A model generated the notes under the pieces. It saw only the letters and a list, made by a program, of their open reading frames with translations, was not told the origin of the DNA and made no database searches. DNA of 64,000 nucleotides, taken from an uncultured Bacteroidales bacterium (GTDB taxonomy: Bacteria; Bacteroidota; Bacteroidia; Bacteroidales; WCHB1-69). Made by a program: the position numbers and the translations under genes. Of the stretch, positions 7,516-45,143 are shown one piece after another (position 1 is the stretch's first letter; each line of letters opens with the position of its first letter). The stretch covers positions 320,890 through 384,889 of the forward strand of contig CAKUVI010000001.1 of assembly GCA_934699095.1 (NCBI GenBank). Reading direction: 5' to 3'.

Positions 7516-7911
7516 TCACTCGGTTGTAGTTTCAGTTTCTGACAGTGCTTGTTCGTTGCGTTTGTTGATGATGATTGCAGATGCGTCGTTCAGCAGTTTT
7601 TCGGCCGATTTCTCTTCACTCACGTAGTATGCGATAGATGATTCGAACTGTTCGTTGGTTATTTTGTATCTGTCGAACAGGTCTTTATAGTAGCGTCGTG
7701 CAAGTTCGTCCTTGGGAATTGTGTCGTCGGGTGTCATCTGCAGTGTGCTTTCGATGAGGTAGCTTTCGGCAAGTATGTTGACGAGGGTGATTCTGTTGAT
7801 TAGGTGTTCAGGCCGTTCCATGACCTGCTTTTTGCTTTTGCAGCCGGCAAAAAACGTCAATAGCGCAACGAGTATGAGTGTTATAGGTCTTAATTTTTTC
7901 ATTTTTGGCAT
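7516..7911 (-). CDS. DUF4296-like lipoprotein
   Basis: Lipobox FFAGC. Small helical protein in the position usually held by DUF4296 in Bacteroidota; family assignment is from memory. Confidence 0.45.
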   Translation of the reverse strand: MPKMKKLRPITLILVALLTFFAGCKSKKQVMERPEHLINRITLVNILAESYLIESTLQMTPDDTIPKDELARRYYKDLFDRYKITNEQFESSIAYYVSEEKSAEKLLNDASAIIINKRNEQALSETETTTE

Positions 7912-36473: not shown

Positions 36474-36757
36474 TGTTTGTCTCATCGAAAGAATCCTCGT
36501 TCCCGTCAACAACGATTTTCCGTTGTATATCTGACGAGCTTTAACGGTTATAACCGGGAAAAACGGCATAGGTCCCGCTGCCATAGTCAACTGGCTGGTA
36601 GTGCGCCATGCGGCCTGAGCCATGCATTCGGGTGACAACGTGCTGAGCCTGCGCCGTGATGTTCGAAGGGAACGGGTGCTGCCGGCTCCGGACAGCGTCG
36701 GATAGCGATCAGAAGATCGATTTTTTCAGTTCGCCCTACGGCTCGCGGGGTCTGCCG

Positions 36758-37213
36758 TCATATCAAATCCGTCTGGAAGTTAAGCGTCTGTATCTCCATG
36801 TCTATTTGTCGTAGGCGGGCCGAGCAGTCATCTATCTGTTTGCCGAGGGCTTTAACATCAATCACAGTCACGGTTTTGATTTCCGAGCGTGAGTATCTAT
36901 CCTGTCCGGCTGAGGCAGTCTCGAAGATGCTCCGCAGCTGGCCGACGCGCATGGTCATTATGTCCTTTCGGGCCATCAGCTGAGTCAGGGTCACCCCATC
37001 GGCATTTTTGGTCTGCATGTTTGTGGCGTTGATGCGCCAGATGAGATCTTCTAATTGCACGAGACAAGCCTCGAGCTCCTTCATCAGTTCCTCGGGTTTT
37101 TCCATCGGCTGGTCGCCCTCCTGTACTTTAACATTGCTTTGAATGCGCGCACCGATCTGCTGGATGCGCTTCTGCAGGTCTTTGCGTATGCTTAATGCTT
37201 CAGCGAGTTTCAT
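36758..37213 (-). CDS. DIP1984/septicolysin-like family protein
   Basis: ~150 aa all-helical protein starting MKLAEALSIRKDLQKRI. Family assignment is from memory of this N-terminal pattern. Start set at 37213, downstream of the -7 box. Confidence 0.55.
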   Translation of the reverse strand: MKLAEALSIRKDLQKRIQQIGARIQSNVKVQEGDQPMEKPEELMKELEACLVQLEDLIWRINATNMQTKNADGVTLTQLMARKDIMTMRVGQLRSIFETASAGQDRYSRSEIKTVTVIDVKALGKQIDDCSARLRQIDMEIQTLNFQTDLI

Positions 37214-37231
37214 GTGTATCCAATTTGGCGG

Positions 37232-37239
37232 CAAAGATA
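37232..37239 (-). promoter_or_regulatory. -7 promoter box (TATCTTTG on the minus strand)
   Basis: TAnnTTTG match 19 nt upstream of the ATG at 37213. Confidence 0.5.
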
Positions 37240-37295
37240 CGCAAAAATATCGTAGATCTGTTGGAGAATACGATATGGGGAATGGCACACTGGCG

Positions 37296-37526
37296 TCATG
37301 AATGATTGTCCGGGTCTGAAGTCTCGTTCTCCGAGGAACTATCGGAGGATTTTCGATGGAGGCTTTCCGACCACCACGCCCAGATGAGGGTGAAAGTGGA
37401 ACTATAGATGAGGCTGCTGAGGATGGCCTGCCATCCTGTTTTGCTGCCGCCGATCAGGTAATACAACAGCAGACCCGCAAGGACAACCGCCCAAACAATA
37501 AGATAGCGGAGGATTTTATTTTTCAT
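37296..37526 (-). CDS. small two-TM membrane protein (76 aa), unknown function
   Basis: MKNKILRYLIVWAVVLAGLLLYYLIGG...IYSSTFTLIWAWW gives two hydrophobic helices, followed by an acidic/Ser-rich tail. Has its own -7 box at 37552-37559. Confidence 0.4.
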   Translation of the reverse strand: MKNKILRYLIVWAVVLAGLLLYYLIGGSKTGWQAILSSLIYSSTFTLIWAWWSESLHRKSSDSSSENETSDPDNHS

Positions 37527-37551
37527 AACGAAGATTTTTTCAATTACGAGG

Positions 37552-37559
37552 CAAAGATA
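37552..37559 (-). promoter_or_regulatory. -7 promoter box (TATCTTTG on the minus strand)
   Basis: TAnnTTTG match 26 nt upstream of the ATG at 37526. Confidence 0.45.
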
Positions 37560-37696
37560 ATGAATATTTCCTTGCCAGCAATAACAATTGTTTATCCATT
37601 TTTGCAACATTTTCACACATACTGAAAACGCTGCAAAAACATATATAGTGTTTTTGGATATCAATATTGATAGTATTTGTTTATGAGGATTCAAAT

Positions 37697-38749
37697 TCAC
37701 ACTAAACTTTCGTTAGTCTCACACGCCTTCATCCTGTTCTTTTGAACAGCTGCCCTACTTGTATTAGCGTAACAATAGACACACAAATGGTTACAAGTGT
37801 TGTACATACCAATGTCTTTGCTTATCATACATCCGCACACTTTTCGCTGCCCCTTGTCCTTCATCTTTTCGGGTGACAAGGCGGGTCGGCTAAAATCCAT
37901 ACCAAACAAAGAATCATTGTTGGGCAGTTCACCATAATTGAGATAATAGAGCAACTCCTTGTCGTCTGCCCAAAGGCGTTTCATCAGTTCACCGTCGATG
38001 CAGCGGTTGTGGGCGATGCCATACTTGTCGAGGTCGATGTTTTCACCGCAAGTGGCCAGTTCGATGCTCCATCCTTCCGACATCCAGCGGTCGCGGCATT
38101 TGGCGAGCCCATCGGCAATCTCGTTCATTTGCTCCAAGGTGAACTCCGCATCGGCAATGGTATCTTTTGAGAATTGGTTCGTCTCTTTCACAAGGTTATT
38201 CTGCACCTTGCGGTAGCCATTGATGTCGATAAAGCTGAAGACGAGTTTGTCCGTCAATCCTTTGAGTTTGTTGCCTAAGTTCCATATTTTTATGAGCAAG
38301 TTACGAGGCGTGAGTTGTGGCGTAACAATCAGCGGGTCGAAACGCCAGATGACACGTTCTTTGCCCACCATTTCCGTCAGTTCACGAAACGTCTGCACAC
38401 GTTGCTCCACGCTTGGCACGTTAGGTTCGAAATGCTCATTGTCGTAGTCGTTGAGGGTGAATTGGACGTAGTAATGAATGCCACGCTCATCCAATTCGTG
38501 CAACAATGGTAAAAGTGGTCGTGGATTCTTTGTCCAAAAGACTACCACTTTACAGTTTTGGAACGACACGTATGTTGGTTTCTGGTTGAACGGGTTGTAC
38601 CACACGCAATAGCCCGCCCGCAGTCTGTTAATGAACCATTTGGCATAGAACGCAGGAATGTCGGTACTCCTGCTCGCCGAAATGATGACGGGTGCGGTGG
38701 CTTCAACGGTCTGGCCTGATTGGGTGGTGATAAGGATTGTGTTCTTCAT
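37697..38749 (-). CDS. DUF1848 domain-containing protein (radical-SAM/TIM-barrel-like, C-terminal Cys cluster)
   Basis: SRSTDIPAFYAKWF near the N-terminus and the C-terminal CGCMISKDIGMYNTCNHLCVYCYAN cluster, recalled as DUF1848 hallmarks. ATG 38749 lies 4 nt after the upstream stop. Confidence 0.75.
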   Translation of the reverse strand: MKNTILITTQSGQTVEATAPVIISASRSTDIPAFYAKWFINRLRAGYCVWYNPFNQKPTYVSFQNCKVVVFWTKNPRPLLPLLHELDERGIHYYVQFTLNDYDNEHFEPNVPSVEQRVQTFRELTEMVGKERVIWRFDPLIVTPQLTPRNLLIKIWNLGNKLKGLTDKLVFSFIDINGYRKVQNNLVKETNQFSKDTIADAEFTLEQMNEIADGLAKCRDRWMSEGWSIELATCGENIDLDKYGIAHNRCIDGELMKRLWADDKELLYYLNYGELPNNDSLFGMDFSRPALSPEKMKDKGQRKVCGCMISKDIGMYNTCNHLCVYCYANTSRAAVQKNRMKACETNESLV

Positions 38750-38753
38750 AATA

Positions 38754-39524
38754 TTAGTACCTGACACTCTGCTTGTTTTTATCAATAACGTAGAATGCAA
38801 TTGTTTTATTAGTCATACTATTCTTAAATATGATGCCGTCACATTCGGCTGGTAGTTTTTTGGGAATGATAATTTCTTCATTAACATCGAGCGTTATTAA
38901 TATTGGTCTAATGATCTCAAGAAAATACCTTTTGTCTTGATCTGTTTTTTGTGAGAGATAAAAAACCTTGTCATGAGTGTTGTAATATGTTGAAAGCGGC
39001 TCTCCGTTTTCTGAGAGGGCGTAAGAAATATTCTTGTTAGGGAGCAAAACATAATTTGGATTCCTATCTTCTGTTTCTGAGAATTGACTCGACAATAGCA
39101 ATAATTTGGTTTTCGTTTTTACGCGCATACAATTTGGTTTACATTTCAGCAAGTCCATTAACACCTCTATTAGAAGGTTTGCCAATATTGGCTTACTCAT
39201 TTTTTCGTAAGAGTAGATTTTGTTGAGTTGCATTGAAATAAAATTAGCAAGTTCCGGATCCATTGTGCTATTAGAATGCGCCTTCCTCATTCCATTTATT
39301 GCTATTTCTGTGGGTGTTGGTCCGTTCCATTCATCTGTACGATGAGTCAAGTGCCATCCCCCACAAGCTTCACAAAAATACGCTCTTTGAGGTATAACAC
39401 CGGTTTCCTTTTTGATATCGTCGTTATTGAACTTCATAAACGTTAATGCTCTTTTCTCTGTGTCGAAAAGCATCTTTGTACGTCCGCAATCTCGGCAATA
39501 ATATCGATTTTTTGTCGGTTTCAT
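38754..39524 (-). CDS. zinc-ribbon protein, unknown function (cassette gene D)
   Basis: 256 aa with an N-terminal CxxC...CxxC (YYCRDCGR ... YFCEACGGWHLT). The rest is unrecognised. The ATG directly abuts the upstream TAA. AT-rich. Confidence 0.6.
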   Translation of the reverse strand: MKPTKNRYYCRDCGRTKMLFDTEKRALTFMKFNNDDIKKETGVIPQRAYFCEACGGWHLTHRTDEWNGPTPTEIAINGMRKAHSNSTMDPELANFISMQLNKIYSYEKMSKPILANLLIEVLMDLLKCKPNCMRVKTKTKLLLLSSQFSETEDRNPNYVLLPNKNISYALSENGEPLSTYYNTHDKVFYLSQKTDQDKRYFLEIIRPILITLDVNEEIIIPKKLPAECDGIIFKNSMTNKTIAFYVIDKNKQSVRY

Positions 39525-41264
39525 TTAATTATGGGATAAATAATTATTGAACAAAAATTCGTCCATCATTTTTGTTACATTTTCATTCTCGTATAAGACA
39601 CTCGTGAATGTCTTGGGTAAATCTGCAAAACCCTTGCAAGCACCCCAAAGCATAAACGCATAACATTTTTGAACGTATTTCTTATTGAGCATATAACGCT
39701 CTATTTGGTCGAAGCCCAATGGCTTGACGAAAAAAGACATGATTGACTGAAAGACTGGCATATTTTCAGGAATTGAAAACGTATCAGATTTATGCCTTTT
39801 GTACTGATAAAAACCTCTCAGCGTCTGCAAAATGCAATTACGTTTGACAGGGTCGATGTTGGGCATTGTTTTATATTTCTTTGCAGATGTTTCAATTGTA
39901 TGCAAAACAAACACATCAGAAACTACTTTTTCGTGTTCGCTCGACAATATACAACTCAGCAGGACATTGAAATATATGATTTCTTCATTGGTTGACTCTA
40001 CAATTTGGAGTCCGTTGTTTTTACAAACAATAAAACTCATATCTATATTCCCGCTGTCTGTTTCTGAGGAGACATCACGAATCAAATCATTAATAATGTC
40101 GCTGACACGGAAGAACAAAGCGGACAAAGTGGAATCATATTTGTATCTTCCTGTTGATGTATTCTTGATTTGTTCGTCGATGTCATCAAGTTCTGATTTC
40201 AAGATTTTGCAGTCGTTATTGAATTCCTCAAACTCCTTGATTTGGGCTTTGAGTTCCATCTTACGGTTGTATTCAGGAGTCCCCTTCCTGAAATACTCTC
40301 GCTGTTTTCCTTTCTTTATTCCATTGGCTTTTTCTTGTGCTTTTATAAAATCCAACTCGTCAAAATATTCCTTGATACGATTGTCTATCAATATTTTGTC
40401 AAGTTTCTTGACAATGGCAATCTTCTTGCTTTCAAGTTCTTTTCTGACTCTACCGTTTTCGCCAAAATTTTCTTTTTTTATTTCGTTGGCTTTCATCATT
40501 GCCAATTTGCTTATCTCAATGTACTGATGTTTCAATACATCAAAACTATTTGATGCCTCACTCGTTTTTAACAAATACAAATCCCTGCATTTTTCAATCA
40601 AAGGTAAAATTGTCAGGTTTTCAACATATTCATCATTTGTCATTATTTGAGTGTTTAAGGAAGCAAATGTGTTCTTCATATTCTTTAATTCGAAGAGAAG
40701 TTGTTGCCCCTTTTTATCGGATGTTGTCAGCTGTCCGCGTACATAACCTACTATTGCGCCCTTCAATTTGTTGAAACGGTTGTCGTTTTCAACATAGTTT
40801 GATTCTTCAAACGAAATAGTTTCGGAATCACGCTTTAGTTTCAACGAGTTTTTTTTTATGTTTTCTACAACAAAATCCTGCTCATATTTATCGACACATT
40901 TTACTTCGTAAAGGATTTTGGATTCCGATATGAGAGCGTTTTTCAATTCATTGGTGGCAAACCTGAATTGTACTAAACCGTTTTTGTAATATATTGTTTT
41001 ATCATACAAATAAGAGCCTGACTTTTTTGGGCCTGCTGTAAGACATTTCAAATCAAGTAATTGTTCGTCGATACAGATTGAATAGTCTCCACCCAAATCT
41101 TTATCCGTCAAAAGCAAATAGTTGGTTTTGTCATTTTTGTCGTTGATATAACGGCTCAAATTGTTGCCGAAATCCCTTTCCCCATAAAACGAATTTGGAG
41201 AAATGCTTTCAGTAACAAATGATTCCAAAAGATTCCAAGCACTGACGTTGATGTAGTATTTCAT
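39525..41264 (-). CDS. 579 aa protein of unknown function with a central coiled-coil-like region (cassette gene C)
   Basis: Long uninterrupted ORF in an AT-rich cassette. The central K/E-rich heptad-like stretch runs roughly from KANEIKKENFG to IDEQIKN. No catalytic motif recognised. Confidence 0.6.
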   Translation of the reverse strand: MKYYINVSAWNLLESFVTESISPNSFYGERDFGNNLSRYINDKNDKTNYLLLTDKDLGGDYSICIDEQLLDLKCLTAGPKKSGSYLYDKTIYYKNGLVQFRFATNELKNALISESKILYEVKCVDKYEQDFVVENIKKNSLKLKRDSETISFEESNYVENDNRFNKLKGAIVGYVRGQLTTSDKKGQQLLFELKNMKNTFASLNTQIMTNDEYVENLTILPLIEKCRDLYLLKTSEASNSFDVLKHQYIEISKLAMMKANEIKKENFGENGRVRKELESKKIAIVKKLDKILIDNRIKEYFDELDFIKAQEKANGIKKGKQREYFRKGTPEYNRKMELKAQIKEFEEFNNDCKILKSELDDIDEQIKNTSTGRYKYDSTLSALFFRVSDIINDLIRDVSSETDSGNIDMSFIVCKNNGLQIVESTNEEIIYFNVLLSCILSSEHEKVVSDVFVLHTIETSAKKYKTMPNIDPVKRNCILQTLRGFYQYKRHKSDTFSIPENMPVFQSIMSFFVKPLGFDQIERYMLNKKYVQKCYAFMLWGACKGFADLPKTFTSVLYENENVTKMMDEFLFNNYLSHN

Positions 41265-41276
41265 AACATGATGGTT

Positions 41277-42635
41277 TTATATTTTTTCGACATCTTTGTC
41301 ATCAACATTTTTCAGATATGATGTAAGGATACCCGAATACGTTATGTAAAGGCTGCGGGAAGCCCTCGTGCAGGCTACATAAAAAGCATTGACAGAGTCA
41401 ACTTTGCCATTTTCGGCAAAAGGAACGAATACGTTGTCGAACTCGGAACCCTTTGCCGCGTAATAATTGAGAATGCAAGGCAGGTCGTTATTGGAAAAAT
41501 CAAGCGTGTTGATAGTTCTGAAAGGGACTGTCTTACTCGTCCGATAGTGAACTTGCGTTTGGGTAATGCCATTTTGAAGGAAGAAATCCAAAACATACTT
41601 TATGTCTGCCTCATTCGGAACCAAAATGGCTACGTCATCCATATCTTCCGCTTTTATGATGTTTATTATCCATCTCAACTCGTCTTCTTTTGAGCGACAT
41701 TTTTTTATTATAGGTTTAGGATAGTTGGGGTAATCGCTGTCGCCGCCATCCTTGCGATTGTTGGTCATTAAATCATTTTTTTCGTTAGATACAATTCTTT
41801 GAGCAACCTTTGCGATGGATTTAGGCAAACGGTAATTGTAATATAATTCGAATGGCTTGAACCCCTCAAGTTGTTTTTCAATATCTTCCATTTTGCTGCC
41901 GGAAGAGATTAATTTTTGATTGCTATCACCAAGCAAGGTGAGGCTTTTGCCAGCTTGTTGAATAAGCCTATTTTTGTAAGCTAATACATTGAAATCTTGC
42001 GCTTCATCCACGATAATATAGTCGATTACTCCTTCGCAGGGCTTGTATAATATACCAGAGGGGACTAATCCGTAGTGAGGGTTTGATGTGCTAAATTCTT
42101 CGTCCATTGTTACTTCCTCGAACCACGAACACCGCCTGCCCCAAGCATAATAAAAAGCGTCTTCCACCCAATCTGCGAAATCAATGCCGTAGTAGCCTGC
42201 CCCATTATTTGAATGAACAACTGGTGAAACTTTGCGAAATTTACGAATAACATTGCTGTTCACTAAGTAAATAATGCTACTGTCGTCAACAACAATTCGT
42301 TCTCTATCATTTTCAAATTTAGTATGTTGCCTACAATACACATCACCGTTTAGGTCGAACCCCCTGTTACGCCAAGCCCAATCGTATGCAATGCGCTCGC
42401 TGTCAAGCCCAAGTTCTTTCATCCCGTATGCTACCATTCTTCTAAGGGCAACTGTTAGAATCAAAATCGCATACGAACCACCTGCATTTTTAGCCTTTGC
42501 AGCACGGTGAATAGCAAGGTTTGTCTTACCACTTCCCGCAACACCCTTGACTATGATGTTTTTGTCGATGCTCTCGACAATTACTTTGCGTTGGTAATCA
42601 TCAAGATTACTTATAAACCATTTTTCTAACCGCAT
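41277..42635 (-). CDS. compact UvrD/Rep-like SF1 helicase (cassette gene B)
   Basis: Q-motif-like DDYQRKVI, Walker A GVAGSGKT, motif II IIVDEAQD, motif III LLGDSNQKL, motif IV YNYRLPKSI, motif V AAKGSEFDNVFV and motif VI FYVACTRASRSLYI. Confidence 0.8.
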   Translation of the reverse strand: MRLEKWFISNLDDYQRKVIVESIDKNIIVKGVAGSGKTNLAIHRAAKAKNAGGSYAILILTVALRRMVAYGMKELGLDSERIAYDWAWRNRGFDLNGDVYCRQHTKFENDRERIVVDDSSIIYLVNSNVIRKFRKVSPVVHSNNGAGYYGIDFADWVEDAFYYAWGRRCSWFEEVTMDEEFSTSNPHYGLVPSGILYKPCEGVIDYIIVDEAQDFNVLAYKNRLIQQAGKSLTLLGDSNQKLISSGSKMEDIEKQLEGFKPFELYYNYRLPKSIAKVAQRIVSNEKNDLMTNNRKDGGDSDYPNYPKPIIKKCRSKEDELRWIINIIKAEDMDDVAILVPNEADIKYVLDFFLQNGITQTQVHYRTSKTVPFRTINTLDFSNNDLPCILNYYAAKGSEFDNVFVPFAENGKVDSVNAFYVACTRASRSLYITYSGILTSYLKNVDDKDVEKI

Positions 42636-43482
42636 TTATCACCTCCTTTTTTATTATTCTCCAAGCCACTTTGCTTACATCATTGTGCTTATGAGAATGG
42701 GTTATTGTATATATTTGGTTATATCCTTCATTTTTTGAGACCACTTTGCAATATGCTGCTTTCAATCCATTATCCATCATCATGGGTAGCCACTCTTGCG
42801 AAGTGTTGTTGTAAGTGGTTACGTCTTCGAGCAGCATTAAGCCATTGTCGGTAAGTTTGGGCATCAAAAATTTGGCAATATGTTCGTAAGCATTCTGCTT
42901 TTCAAATTGGTCTTTCGTCACAAACTCGCAAATGGCCTTGAAAGAGATTATTAGGTCAAACTGTTTGTCCAAAACCTTATTCAGTATGTGCAAATCGTAA
43001 AAATCGTCAATCATGATGGGAGCGGCATTGTTTTCCACTTCAAAACTGATATGAGATTGCGCCTTCTTCAATATTTTCTCATAAATCCTAAGTGCATGTT
43101 GATTCCCGTCTAAAGCCACTATCCGCACCTTTTTAACATGCGGCAAACACTCATCAATGACAGCAAGCAAGCCAATGATTTCACCTCCTGTACCACAACC
43201 GAAGTCGAACACGGAAAGAGCTGTTTGAGTGGCAAATTCGTCTGCATGGTGTTGGAAATATTCACTGAAAATGCAATATGCCTCAGCATAACTGCGAGGG
43301 AAATACGTACCAAGATAATTCAAGGTCTTGGCCTTGTCATCATCAATGTTCGTCATGTCGGAATAAGAAGGACTATATTCCGCCTTTTGTTCTCCAAAAA
43401 TGCAATCGTCAAGCCACTTTGGCAATTCCATTGTTCCCGAATAATCTCCACGGCGACCCCCGACTCCGTACAAATAAATCAT
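42607..43482 (-). CDS. class I SAM-dependent methyltransferase, substrate unknown (cassette gene A)
   Basis: Motif I VFDFGCGTGGE, motif II-like RIVALDGN, and DLIISF. No (D/N/S)PP(Y/F/W) or PCQ DNA-MTase motif seen. Overlaps gene B by 29 nt. An alternative start is MELPKW at 43431. Confidence 0.7.
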   Translation of the reverse strand: MIYLYGVGGRRGDYSGTMELPKWLDDCIFGEQKAEYSPSYSDMTNIDDDKAKTLNYLGTYFPRSYAEAYCIFSEYFQHHADEFATQTALSVFDFGCGTGGEIIGLLAVIDECLPHVKKVRIVALDGNQHALRIYEKILKKAQSHISFEVENNAAPIMIDDFYDLHILNKVLDKQFDLIISFKAICEFVTKDQFEKQNAYEHIAKFLMPKLTDNGLMLLEDVTTYNNTSQEWLPMMMDNGLKAAYCKVVSKNEGYNQIYTITHSHKHNDVSKVAWRIIKKEVINAVRKMVYK

Positions 43483-43500
43483 TCAATTTACCAAACACAA

Positions 43501-43540
43501 TAAAAAAAGCGCGGGAATCTGAACCATCGCTCATCCCGCG
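43501..43540 (-). terminator. intrinsic terminator-like hairpin 18 nt upstream of cassette gene A
   Basis: On the minus strand: CGCGGGA, a 17 nt loop, TCCCGCG, then C and TTTTTTTA. Confidence 0.55.
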
Positions 43541-43634
43541 TATCTGGCCTTCGCAATGCCTTCCTGCCGAGGATAAGCAATGCTGAAGCCCACGCCGTTG
43601 TATATGTAGAACGGATTTTGAATATTCCGCCTGT

Positions 43635-43656
43635 GAGACGCGCCATGGCGCGTCTC
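43635..43656. repeat. perfect 22 bp palindrome GAGACGCGCCATGGCGCGTCTC
   Basis: Self-complementary over all 22 nt, read directly. Lies inside the cassette leader. Confidence 0.9.
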
Positions 43657-43816
43657 TACGGATAATATACACAACCATGGACATTGACCATTGCCTTACC
43701 ACGCAGCAGGATATTGAATTTGCGAAGTTCGATACGCCGCAGATAAGACGTTGACTCAACGCCTTTTTTATATGTCTGCCTCCCTGCAAAAATTATCAGA
43801 ATGCAGAAAAGACCTG

Positions 43817-43824
43817 CAAAAATA
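43817..43824 (-). promoter_or_regulatory. -7 promoter box (TATTTTTG on the minus strand) at the head of the cassette leader
   Basis: Exact TAnnTTTG match. It is part of an 11 bp direct repeat CCTGCAAAAAT (43783-43793 and 43813-43823). Confidence 0.45.
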
Positions 43825-43901
43825 CAAAAAATATTATAAAATGCAAGATTTTTATTCCATCACTTTAATTACTTCCACTGCCCTGCTATTTAAAAAAAAT
43901 G

Positions 43902-43909
43902 TACCTTTG
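43902..43909 (+). promoter_or_regulatory. -7 promoter box (TACCTTTG)
   Basis: TAnnTTTG match 38 nt upstream of the ATG at 43947. Confidence 0.5.
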
Positions 43910-43946
43910 CCACACTTTTTTTAACACAAACTAACACAAAATAAAT

Positions 43947-45143
43947 ATGGAAAAATTTGATCCCGCAACCAACATCCAAGCGTTGGACAAAAAAGACGCC
44001 TACCGCGGCGTGAACCCTGCCATCTGCGACAGCGCAACCTTCATGTTCGAACAAGCTAAAACCATGACCGACACGTTCCATGGTGAGACTGAAGGCTATT
44101 ATCTATATTCAAGACATTGGAACCCAAGTACTTACGCTCTCTGTGAGTCTTTGGCTGCAATGGAAGGCACCGAGGCTGCCTGGGCTACCGGCTCTGGTAT
44201 GGCCGCAATCACCGTCGCTCTCCTCCACGAAGTGAAAGCCGGAGACCATATCCTCTCAAGCATGACAACCTACGGCGGTACCTTCGCTTTCCTCAACAAC
44301 TACATCAAAAAGTTCGGCGTTGAGGTTGACTTTGTGAACATGCAAGACCTTGAGGCTGTTAAAAAGGCTATCAAACCTAACACCAAGGTTCTCTATACCG
44401 AGACAATGAACAACCCGCTCCTGCGCATCGCCAACCTTCCTGAACTGTCGAAGATTGCCCACGCACACGGTGCCAAACTCTTGGTTGACAACACCTTCAC
44501 ACCTATGATTTTCTCTCCTTACCGCCTCGGCGCTGATGTGGTTATCTATAGTATGACCAAATACGTGAACGGCATGAACGACTGCGTTGCAGGTGCTATC
44601 TGCGGTACTGCCGAGTATATCAACTCACTCATCGACGTGAACAACGGAACAGCTATGCTTCTCGGTCCGGTGCTCGACCCAATGCGCTCTTCAAGCATCC
44701 AGAAAAACCTCCATACACTCCATATCCGCATGAAACAACACAGCGCTAATGCAATGTATCTTGCAAAACGTTTCGAAGAGACCGGCTTTAAGTACAACTA
44801 CCCTGGGCTCCCAGAACATCCAGACTATGAGCTCTTTAAGTCGATGATGAACGAGGAATACGGTTTCGGCGGCATGATTTCAATCGACATGGGCACTGCT
44901 GCAAAGGCAAGCGCAATCATGGAGAAAATGCAAGAACTCGGCGTTGGTTACCTCGCTGTAAGCCTTGGCTATTTCAAGACTCTGTTCAGCAACTCCGGAA
45001 AATCAACCTCTTCAGAAGTTCCTGAGGATATCCAGAGAGAGATGGGCATGAGCGAAGGCCTGATCCGCTTCTCTGTTGGTCTCGATAACGATCCTGAACG
45101 CACATTCCAGCTTATCAAACAGGCTATCGAAGCAACAAAATAA
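43947..45143 (+). CDS. Cys/Met-metabolism PLP-dependent enzyme (methionine gamma-lyase/cystathionine gamma-synthase family)
   Basis: YSRHWNPST, GSGMAAI and the PLP-lysine context SMTKYVNG. Confidence 0.8.
   Translation: MEKFDPATNIQALDKKDAYRGVNPAICDSATFMFEQAKTMTDTFHGETEGYYLYSRHWNPSTYALCESLAAMEGTEAAWATGSGMAAITVALLHEVKAGDHILSSMTTYGGTFAFLNNYIKKFGVEVDFVNMQDLEAVKKAIKPNTKVLYTETMNNPLLRIANLPELSKIAHAHGAKLLVDNTFTPMIFSPYRLGADVVIYSMTKYVNGMNDCVAGAICGTAEYINSLIDVNNGTAMLLGPVLDPMRSSSIQKNLHTLHIRMKQHSANAMYLAKRFEETGFKYNYPGLPEHPDYELFKSMMNEEYGFGGMISIDMGTAAKASAIMEKMQELGVGYLAVSLGYFKTLFSNSGKSTSSEVPEDIQREMGMSEGLIRFSVGLDNDPERTFQLIKQAIEATK

Follow-up and report, generated by a model that had tools for sequence, protein, structure and literature searches.

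A five-gene methyltransferase–helicase–DUF1848 operon with a structured leader RNA in an uncultured Bacteroidales bacterium: a candidate defence system

Two groups of class 1 UG/Abi reverse transcriptases (RTs) are the described systems closest to the locus treated here: UG35, in which a methylase–RT fusion is accompanied by a UvrD-like helicase, and UG25, in which a methylase–RT fusion is accompanied by a DUF1848 protein (Mestre et al. 2022, PMC9226505). The sequence under study is a minus-strand operon of five genes (A to E) in a window of 64 000 nucleotides (nt), the whole stretch of DNA that was analysed, from an uncultured Bacteroidales bacterium (contig CAKUVI010000001.1); loci labelled L### are relatives fetched for comparison. 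The product of A resembles the methylase part of RT_UG35, B resembles RTasHel (the UG35 partner) and E resembles RTasDUF1848 (the UG25 partner), and the pairing of a methyltransferase with DUF1848 also recalls UG25. An earlier sequence-only reading of this DNA is to be revised in that A, B and E do have kin among defence candidates. The cassette differs from UG25 and UG35 in that A–E contain no RT domain (RVT_1, RT_UG) and no alpha-Rep domain, and in that the methyltransferase is encoded on its own as a small protein. The cassette combines the helicase with DUF1848, of which UG35 has only the former and UG25 only the latter, and the family of protein C has not been reported alongside UG25 or UG35 RTs. 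The locus is a real, tightly packed five-gene operon, which we read, with a confidence only slightly better than even, as a single transcription unit for an uncharacterised system of defence against phages or mobile elements. The genes are as follows:

42607–43482, minus strand: A, class I S-adenosylmethionine (SAM)-dependent methyltransferase, 291 amino acids (aa) as an open reading frame (ORF), likely start at 43431; assigned from Pfam and homologue alignment
41277–42635, minus strand: B, compact UvrD-like superfamily 1 (SF1) helicase, 452 aa; assigned from Pfam, PADLOC, NCBIfam and PDB
39525–41264, minus strand: C, protein of a new family, 579 aa; no library match, AlphaFold2 (AF2) model
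38754–39524, minus strand: D, protein with an N-terminal CxxC...CxxC zinc ribbon, 256 aa; sub-threshold family matches
37697–38749, minus strand: E, DUF1848 protein, 350 aa from its ATG (37697–38800 as a TTG-initiated ORF); assigned from PF08902

The five packed minus-strand ORFs with coupling-type junctions that had been read from the sequence were all reproduced: A and B overlap by 29 nt, B and C are separated by 12 nt, the stop codon of C abuts the ATG of D, and D and E are separated by 4 nt (TATT), corresponding to spacings of −29, +12, 0 and +4 nt. The true ATG of E lies at 38749, the longer TTG-initiated ORF reaching 38800. A probably begins at M18 (ATG at 43431, product of 274 aa), because its homologues measure 264–273 aa and the start MELPKWLD is conserved in L130. 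About 130 related loci were compared, and counts are given after dereplication. The C-seeded set consisted of 32 genome loci, 6 IMG/VR loci and several metagenome contigs, the DUF1848-seeded set of 80 metagenome loci; ORFs in the fetched loci were labelled by phmmer with the proteins of the window. Similarly tight gaps were found across these loci (A–B −89 to +42 nt, with one outlier; B–C −56 to +32 nt; C–E −68 to +32 nt), and the tight junctions are therefore not a product of chance.

A homologue of B was located directly upstream of C in 25/25 C-seeded clusters. Genes A and E were present together in 11/25, neither occurring without the other, and D was present in 3/25 and additionally in L130–L132. 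When the search was seeded with DUF1848, A-B-C was found in 16 of the 23 clusters with at least 4.5 kb of upstream sequence, and a helicase only in one. The order A-B-C-E was observed in at least 27 dereplicated loci, and this four-gene core was found in many gut and rumen Bacteroidales. B–C is the invariant two-gene core of the cassette and A+E an optional add-on pair; D is an accessory of one sub-clade, filling a variable slot between C and E. The proposal that A to E belong together was therefore upheld as regards a conserved cassette and revised as regards the unit, which is B–C with optional A+E and, in one sub-clade only, D. The same holds for the expectation that homologues of C and D would be syntenic with A and B elsewhere: C always stands behind a B homologue, and D accompanies the cassette just in its sub-clade.

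A computed profile gave a G+C content of 33–42 % for A–D and of 45–54 % for the flanks, so that the AT-richness of A–D was borne out. The figure of 57 % previously spot-counted for the DUF1848 gene was not (mean G+C 47 %, G+C at third codon positions (GC3) 59 %), and the value above 60 % quoted for a line of the flanking pyridoxal phosphate (PLP) enzyme gene stands against flank windows of 500 nt, none of which exceeded 55 %. In each related locus examined, G+C and GC3 of E exceeded those of A–C; the step within the cassette therefore reflects the DUF1848 gene family and is not the edge of an island.

Protein A matched Methyltransf_31 (9.6e-8) and also Methyltransf_12 and Methyltransf_25 in Pfam. 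Its best matches in PADLOC were the N-terminal methylase part of RT_UG35 (5e-9, covering profile positions 43–205 of 938) and, weakly, mad2 (3.4e-6), and its nearest solved relative was a polyketide O-methyltransferase domain, with a marginal match. The term "modification enzyme" used for A earlier is unproven in the restriction–modification (R-M) sense, A having no match to a DNA-methylase family. For B, matches to UvrD_C, AAA_19 and UvrD_C_2 were obtained from Pfam, and its description as a UvrD-like SF1 helicase proved correct, with the Walker A lysine K37, DEAQ and motifs III–VI readable in the sequence. PADLOC gave GajB (1.5e-18, several profiles, over partial stretches only), RTasHel (2.3e-16) and a weak 47-residue match to PDC-M16 (3.7e-6). 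The NCBIfam match to HelD (6e-21) fell below the curated cutoff, and UvrD (5e-10) and HelD were the nearest solved relatives in the PDB.

As regards Gabija, B has its strongest PADLOC matches among GajB-type UvrD helicases (1.5e-18), though RTasHel and HelD are matched comparably, and both systems have a two-gene core of helicase plus partner. The cassette differs from Gabija in that GajA (OLD-family ATPase/Toprim nuclease) is absent from A–E, C matches no PADLOC model, and B comprises 452 aa, compared with roughly 500–650 positions in the GajB profiles. According to the PADLOC scan, A–E contain no signature gene of Gabija, BREX, DISARM, Hachiman or similar systems, as had been read by eye; nor does any system model in PADLOC-DB 2.0 fit A–E, in agreement with the earlier statement that this was not recognisable as a named system. 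In its general make-up of a helicase with a partner, an enzyme of modification type and a regulator or leader, the cassette follows known defence systems. Relative to R-M, BREX, DISARM and MADS, the cassette offers only a generic class I methyltransferase (A), with PglZ/BrxC, DrmB/PLD, the mad genes and a restriction endonuclease unmatched. Only a domain is held in common with PDC-M16, to which C, E and the methyltransferase domain were unmatched. Retrons differ by their RT, which is absent from the window's cassette; retron-type RTs were seen only at other loci, beside WYL-B-C. Neither the C family nor the gene combination was found described in PADLOC-DB 2.0, Pfam, NCBIfam, PHROGs, the PDB or the searchable literature. 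A literature search on DUF1848, PDC-M16 and Bacteroides defence returned Mestre et al. 2022 (PMC9226505) as the sole relevant paper and nothing published on PDC-M16.

A diverged form of the cassette (L037 type) is frequent in human-gut metagenomes. It encodes a NERD–methyltransferase fusion (about 690 aa, in most copies), a helicase of 340–390 aa, a C-like protein of 700–820 aa that has its N-terminal domain in common with the window's C, and a DUF1848 protein. The order A-B-C-E is kept, with A, B and C 25–35 % identical to those of the window and E 64–66 % identical. The NERD part of L037-type A matched PDC-M16A at 3e-35, and the best PADLOC matches of the diverged helicase were C3a187 (NERD+UvrD, 2e-21) and Nhi (5e-16). 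These cassettes resemble Nhi, AbiO and C3a187 in joining a NERD domain (on the methyltransferase) with a short UvrD-like helicase. In Nhi, AbiO and C3a187, however, nuclease and helicase are combined in one protein acting alone, whereas in the diverged cassettes the two are split and are joined by the methyltransferase, a C-family protein and DUF1848; a NERD domain is missing from the window's version. In other variants a CoiA_nuc/DUF6035 protein is encoded directly upstream of A. The addition of a NERD fusion or a CoiA-like nuclease in variants suggests that DNA cleavage may be one output among the forms of the cassette.

Protein C gave zero matches in Pfam, PADLOC, NCBIfam and PHROGs, and its sequence profile retrieved nothing from the PDB. 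At least 230 close homologues were found in Prevotella and other Bacteroidales, and a profile search of 1.84 billion representatives yielded 614 clusters at E ≤ 1e-3. The AF2 model (mean predicted local distance difference test score (pLDDT) 82.8) consists of an N-terminal alpha/beta domain (residues ~1–135), a helical coiled-coil region of about 250 residues and a helical domain at the C-terminus; when the model was compared with the PDB and BFVD by Foldseek, only coiled-coil noise was returned. The original characterisation of C as an unknown with a coiled-coil-like middle agrees with both results, no family match being found and the model showing some 250 residues of long helices. Residues N11, E19-S20, P23, Y27, R30, G33, K122, K168-G169, Y174, G177 and N198 are invariant in the superfamily, and the N-terminal domain, which like the C-terminal one is conserved, carries the motifs ES..P..Y..R.G, K and KG..Y..G. 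The loop 19–49 in this domain is strongly conserved and was modelled with low confidence. Assignment of C as a PD-(D/E)xK nuclease was considered, an E...D...ExK pattern being seen in close homologues only, and was rejected because the Asp is not conserved throughout the superfamily, the ExK lies in the modelled coil and no nuclease was returned by Foldseek. Several C homologues (P0005, P0063, P0080 and P0102) are named "lantibiotic ABC transporter" in public (NCBI) records; this looks like a propagated misannotation, since a transporter domain is undetectable.

Protein E was assigned to PF08902 (DUF1848) at 4e-92 and matched RTasDUF1848 in PADLOC at 3e-39. Its conserved cysteines are C234, C250, C305, C307, C319, C323 and C326, of which the C-terminal CX3CX2C arrangement (C319-x3-C323-x2-C326) was invariant in 36–37 aligned sequences. 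The AF2 model (pLDDT 85) is (beta/alpha)-barrel-like, and only weak, generic TIM-barrel matches were obtained with Foldseek (E about 2e-3), the 50 best including no radical SAM enzyme. PF04055 was not matched, the sole related match being to 23 residues of an NCBIfam radical SAM model, and no solved relative was found by sequence. The CX3CX2C motif by which radical SAM enzymes bind a [4Fe-4S] cluster is present, but is C-terminal rather than N-terminal. The radical-SAM-like Cys cluster attributed to E from the letters is accordingly real as a motif and is not accompanied by a sequence match to the superfamily (PF04055). Many E homologues carry the name "DNA repair photolyase" at JGI, which is an automatic annotation. 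DUF1848 comprises more than 8000 clusters at 90 % identity. It is also the last gene of two other operons behind the leader described below, namely L083:3057–9038 (Hsp70-like/TPR protein, short helicase, 454-aa protein, DUF1848) and L108:6531–9047 (Big_2-repeat protein, DUF1848), which suggests that it may serve as a reusable terminal module.

Protein D contains CxxC at residues 10–13 and 51–54, so that both pairs of the CxxC..CxxC zinc ribbon reported earlier were confirmed; scans of Pfam, PADLOC and NCBIfam gave only weak zinc-ribbon-like matches, none above threshold. Its 37 homologues are mostly alike just over the N-terminal ~75 residues. In L130–L132, D homologues at 58 % identity occupy the slot between C and E; in L136, which carries the closest C relatives (78 % identity), D is replaced there by proteins of 110 and 318 aa.

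A structured element that had escaped the sequence-only reading lies in the 464-nt interval separating A from the divergent PLP-enzyme gene. This element, its promoter and the related elements are as follows:

43817–43824, minus strand: Bacteroides-type −7 promoter box TATTTTTG (TAnnTTTG), read from the sequence
43494–43783, minus strand: structured leader or non-coding RNA of ~290 nt, a long imperfect hairpin, found by folding, covariation and nhmmer
L116:3656–3951, L047:1482–1779, L083:2701–2996 and L108:6189–6482: leader homologues, found by blastn and nhmmer
L152:235–519, L150:388–639 and L153:4918–5210: further leader homologues
L136:5503–5712, L013:7440–7637 and L029 ~7560–7700: other long-hairpin families upstream of the methyltransferase gene
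L022:3928–4127 with L020:1497–1690, and L021:923–1172: other long-hairpin families upstream of the methyltransferase gene

The sequence TAnnTTTG is the consensus of the Bacteroides −7 promoter box, and in 13/15 homologous elements it precedes the 5′ end of the leader profile by 41–71 nt. On the cassette strand, positions 43485–43800 fold as one long hairpin with a minimum free energy (MFE) of −124 kcal/mol (z = −6.3 against dinucleotide shuffles), the antisense strand reaching just −95 kcal/mol; this asymmetry of 29 kcal/mol points to G–U pairs, as expected in RNA. The apex is formed by a perfect 22-nt palindrome, GAGACGCGCCATGGCGCGTCTC (43635–43656), which occurs nowhere else in the window; homologues differ from one another in this apical region. 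At the 3′ end (about 43497–43540) stands a terminator-like GCGGGA...TCCCGC hairpin followed by seven U; ~65 nt separate this end of the leader from the likely start of A. Covariation was tested on an alignment of nine sequences, with the structure taken from the single-sequence fold of one member. Paired cells amounted to 77.8 %, compared with 37–45 % with slid partners, a percentage that is inflated because the structure stems from a member of the alignment; unaffected by this are the pairs altered on both sides (51, compared with 24–28 in the slid controls). The covariation score was 0.30 (controls ≤0.13), and the observed values were attained in 0/500 shuffles. RNAalifold applied to the same alignment gave local helices only, and the explicitly tested long hairpin was far better supported. 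A single copy of the leader was found in the window by nhmmer, no Rfam family was matched at E ≤ 1 within 43494–43783 (search span 36500–44200, both strands), and no counterpart of the leader was found on plasmids by blastn.

Homologues of the leader were located on the same strand directly upstream of A-B-C-D-E, of A-B2-C2-E, of an Hsp70/TPR–helicase–454-aa–DUF1848 operon and of a Big_2–DUF1848 operon. Two further leader-preceded operons consist of B, C and a radical-SAM module, and of a 246-aa protein, a 228-aa protein, B and C. A pattern scan of IMG/VR yielded 19 more copies, whose downstream genes were read where the sequence allowed; among them were the Mod and Res genes of a complete Type III R-M system, an EF-Tu-like GTPase together with a HerA-like ATPase, and a lone radical-SAM module. 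The layout of promoter, structured RNA, terminator-like hairpin with U run and first gene resembles that of attenuating leaders (riboswitch or antitermination type). It differs from these in being a single extended hairpin of ~290 nt and not a compact ligand-binding fold, in belonging to no Rfam family, and in preceding unrelated operons that are alike solely in their defence-type character. What surprises most about the locus is that unrelated defence operons have a leader RNA in common. Interpretation of the element as integron attC-like or as an invertible promoter was set aside: there is one copy per locus with no flanking pair, the sequence is conserved, and a promoter and a U run are present.

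The other long hairpins upstream of methyltransferase genes (L013, L021, L022, L029 and L136) folded with z values of −4 to −6. A stretch GTAAGTNGAAANCTG is common to L136, L137 and L029, and a similar TGTAAGT...ACTTACAG stem occurs in L116; judged by these shared stretches, the families may be diverged relatives of the leader. The radical-SAM module mentioned above is recurrent and consists of a ~75-aa protein, a radical SAM protein of 470–490 aa (PF04055) and a 380-aa unknown (L044:11769–14602, L045–L049 and L153:1710–4856); it sits downstream of B–C or alone behind the same leader. Two leader copies on the minus strand (L119:11228–11503 and L038:9583–9774) point at an opposite-strand 102-aa gene about 2 kb downstream of DUF1848.

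As to genomic context, WYL regulators were found directly upstream of B in relatives. The commonest neighbours were SLFN_AlbA_2/HATPase_c_4 proteins (10 of 139 flanking genes, Pfam), and Abi_2, Eco47II, an MmeI-like enzyme, tyrosine integrases, and Mob_Pre and other relaxases were also present. Six IMG/VR contigs carry, in order, an integrase, B, C, the 75-aa protein, the radical SAM protein and the 380-aa protein. Judged by its gene content, this neighbourhood is typical of defence islands and of the cargo of integrative or mobilisable elements. The related loci do not lie in structural settings of phages or of integrative and conjugative elements, a possibility that had been raised as a check. 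Neither an oriT nor a transfer gene was found within the window, whose copy is chromosomal.

In L023 (12244–17366), and also in L025, L026 and L035, a retron-type RT with "HisKin-conflict" and "iREC" genes lies just downstream of WYL-B-C. The L023 RT resembles PADLOC RT-Protease_XI/RT-TIR_XII (about 1e-100), and the group has the appearance of a retron whose effector pair, a kinase and a receiver, is unusual. The retron RT was rejected as a part of the cassette and treated as a neighbouring system: it has its own HisKin-conflict/iREC or 300-aa partners and is missing from most loci. The recurrent 554/555-aa gene downstream of E was not equated with the Schlafen-like neighbour, single-sequence phmmer having returned just four weak matches; SLFN_AlbA_2/HATPase_c_4 is nevertheless seen by Pfam in 10 flanking genes, and the gene was kept as a frequent neighbour.

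A defence function of the operon is favoured by the synteny and coupling of the genes, the kinship with UG25/UG35 and with GajB, the nuclease additions, the context, the low G+C, the patchy distribution and the shared leader. The following mechanistic details are held with far less confidence than the function itself. Transcription would stop in the leader by default, and some signal would permit read-through, so that different defence operons with the same leader could be switched together. B, with its intact ATPase/helicase motifs, and C would form the sensing and effector core, probably as a complex on foreign nucleic acid and in a manner resembling other helicase-plus-partner systems. A and the Fe–S-type barrel protein E would constitute a SAM-using chemical module that modifies nucleic acid or a nucleotide, either for self-marking or for inactivation of the invader. 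D would act as an optional zinc-ribbon adaptor, and nuclease domains would supply cleavage in the variants that have them.

Several observations weigh against a defence function. No recognisable catalytic fold was found in C by Foldseek and profile searches, and no recognisable nuclease in the window's cassette by family scans of A–E. Family scans of A gave no N6_N4_Mtase, N6_Mtase or DNA_methylase match, and a (D/N/S)PP(Y/F) motif was not readable in its sequence. E occurred without A-B-C in 6/23 clusters and is far more conserved than A–C, as for a housekeeping enzyme. In the window's species the cassette stands between housekeeping genes and was present in 18/18 contigs with an identical PLP enzyme, and no empty site was found among these contigs. 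The context tallies stem from C- or E-seeded loci and are not a genome-wide measure of defence enrichment. The defence role of UG25 and UG35 themselves has been rated "inconclusive", enrichment not being established (Mestre et al. 2022, PMC9226505).

Part of this evidence would suit a role in nucleic-acid repair or housekeeping modification, with DUF1848 as a radical-SAM-like enzyme of the "DNA repair photolyase" type that acts with helicase and methyltransferase on damaged DNA or on RNA. E is very abundant and retains 61–77 % identity even where A–C have fallen to 25–35 %, it stands alone in another, recurrent setting, B finds its best named full-length matches in UvrD and HelD, and the cassette is fixed in the window's species with housekeeping flanks. 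The JGI name on many E homologues, which would also fit, is automatic, no solved relative exists to support it, and Foldseek gave a generic TIM barrel only. A repair function is considered unlikely in view of the patchy distribution, the low G+C and the fast divergence of A–C, the NERD or CoiA nuclease additions in some variants, the common WYL regulators and mobile-element contexts, the sharing of the leader with R-M operons, and the fact that more than half of the C-seeded loci have B–C but lack A and E. A shade less credible still is an establishment or anti-defence module of a mobile element, in which the hairpin would be an Frpo-type promoter in single-stranded DNA that fires on the transferred strand, so that early synthesis of the methyltransferase, the helicase and their partners would protect the incoming DNA. 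Frpo elements, which are long hairpins, lie upstream of leading-region genes, and orphan methyltransferases are prominent among these genes (PMC11541004); the layout of methyltransferase plus long hairpin (~290 nt, structure conserved) recalls them; B–C cassettes also often lie beside integrases and Mob or Relaxase genes. Yet in 13/15 copies an ordinary TAnnTTTG box stands outside, 41–71 nt upstream of the hairpin profile, and none was seen by eye inside the window's hairpin, the interior of which was excluded from the systematic scan. A terminator-like U run closes the hairpin, the sense strand folds better by 29 kcal/mol, which points to G–U pairs in RNA, one of the operons behind this element is a defence system, namely a complete Type III R-M system, and the window's copy is chromosomal with transfer genes absent nearby.

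The homology of A, B and E to the UG35/UG25 methyltransferase domain, helicase and DUF1848 partners, together with the lack of an RT domain in A–E, would also be expected of an RT-less remnant of a UG25/UG35-type system that is decaying or non-functional. This is very improbable: all five ORFs are intact, the RT-less layout with coupled junctions and a fixed position of C is kept in dozens of divergent loci, and C itself is conserved (614 representative clusters). The conserved RT-less architecture and the conserved C thus argue for a functional system rather than decay. Finally, the G+C step from about 35 % in C/D to about 48 % in E could have marked E as a resident host gene beside which A–D were inserted as a separate AT-rich island. 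That E is such an island-edge host gene is effectively refuted by the conserved C–E synteny, E overlapping or abutting the upstream cassette in at least 27 dereplicated loci with differing downstream genes, and by the composition step, E lying above A–C in G+C and GC3 at every locus examined.

One further feature was recorded beyond E:

37591–37647, minus strand: hairpin of ~19 bp, 50–105 nt past the stop codon of E, which surfaced as a spurious mir-511 match

Judged by its position and fold, this hairpin may be the terminator of the operon. The region downstream of E (36758–37700, minus strand) encodes a short protein predicted to lie in the membrane (called at 76 aa in L041, and 134 aa long if the ORF is read from a GTG that overlaps the stop codon of E) and a DUF6847 protein, with host-like G+C. 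Both genes were left out of the cassette because, among the fetched loci, their homologues were found only in the same-species contigs L041 and L042.

Compared with E. coli or Bacillus, the defence systems of gut Bacteroidales have been poorly charted. Human-gut and rumen metagenomes frequently contain the cassette and its diverged form, which most of the recovered DUF1848 loci carry; these forms unite two families without a function, the C superfamily and DUF1848, and tie the partners of UG25/UG35 RTs (methyltransferase, helicase, DUF1848) to an RT-free system. A bolder interpretation, which we put forward tentatively and hold to be distinctly less probable than a defence function as such, is that B–C is a new and widespread immune core of Bacteroidota with optional A+E SAM chemistry, and that the leader is a common conditional-termination switch for unrelated defence operons of gut Bacteroidales. 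If this were true, DUF1848 would gain its first function, the presence of the same parts beside UG25/UG35 reverse transcriptases would be explained, and a shared "defence regulon" signal would span the cassette, Type III R-M, HerA-type and radical-SAM modules. The leader, if regulatory, would provide a testable handle on the switching of immunity, and the genes downstream of it could reveal more defence genes.

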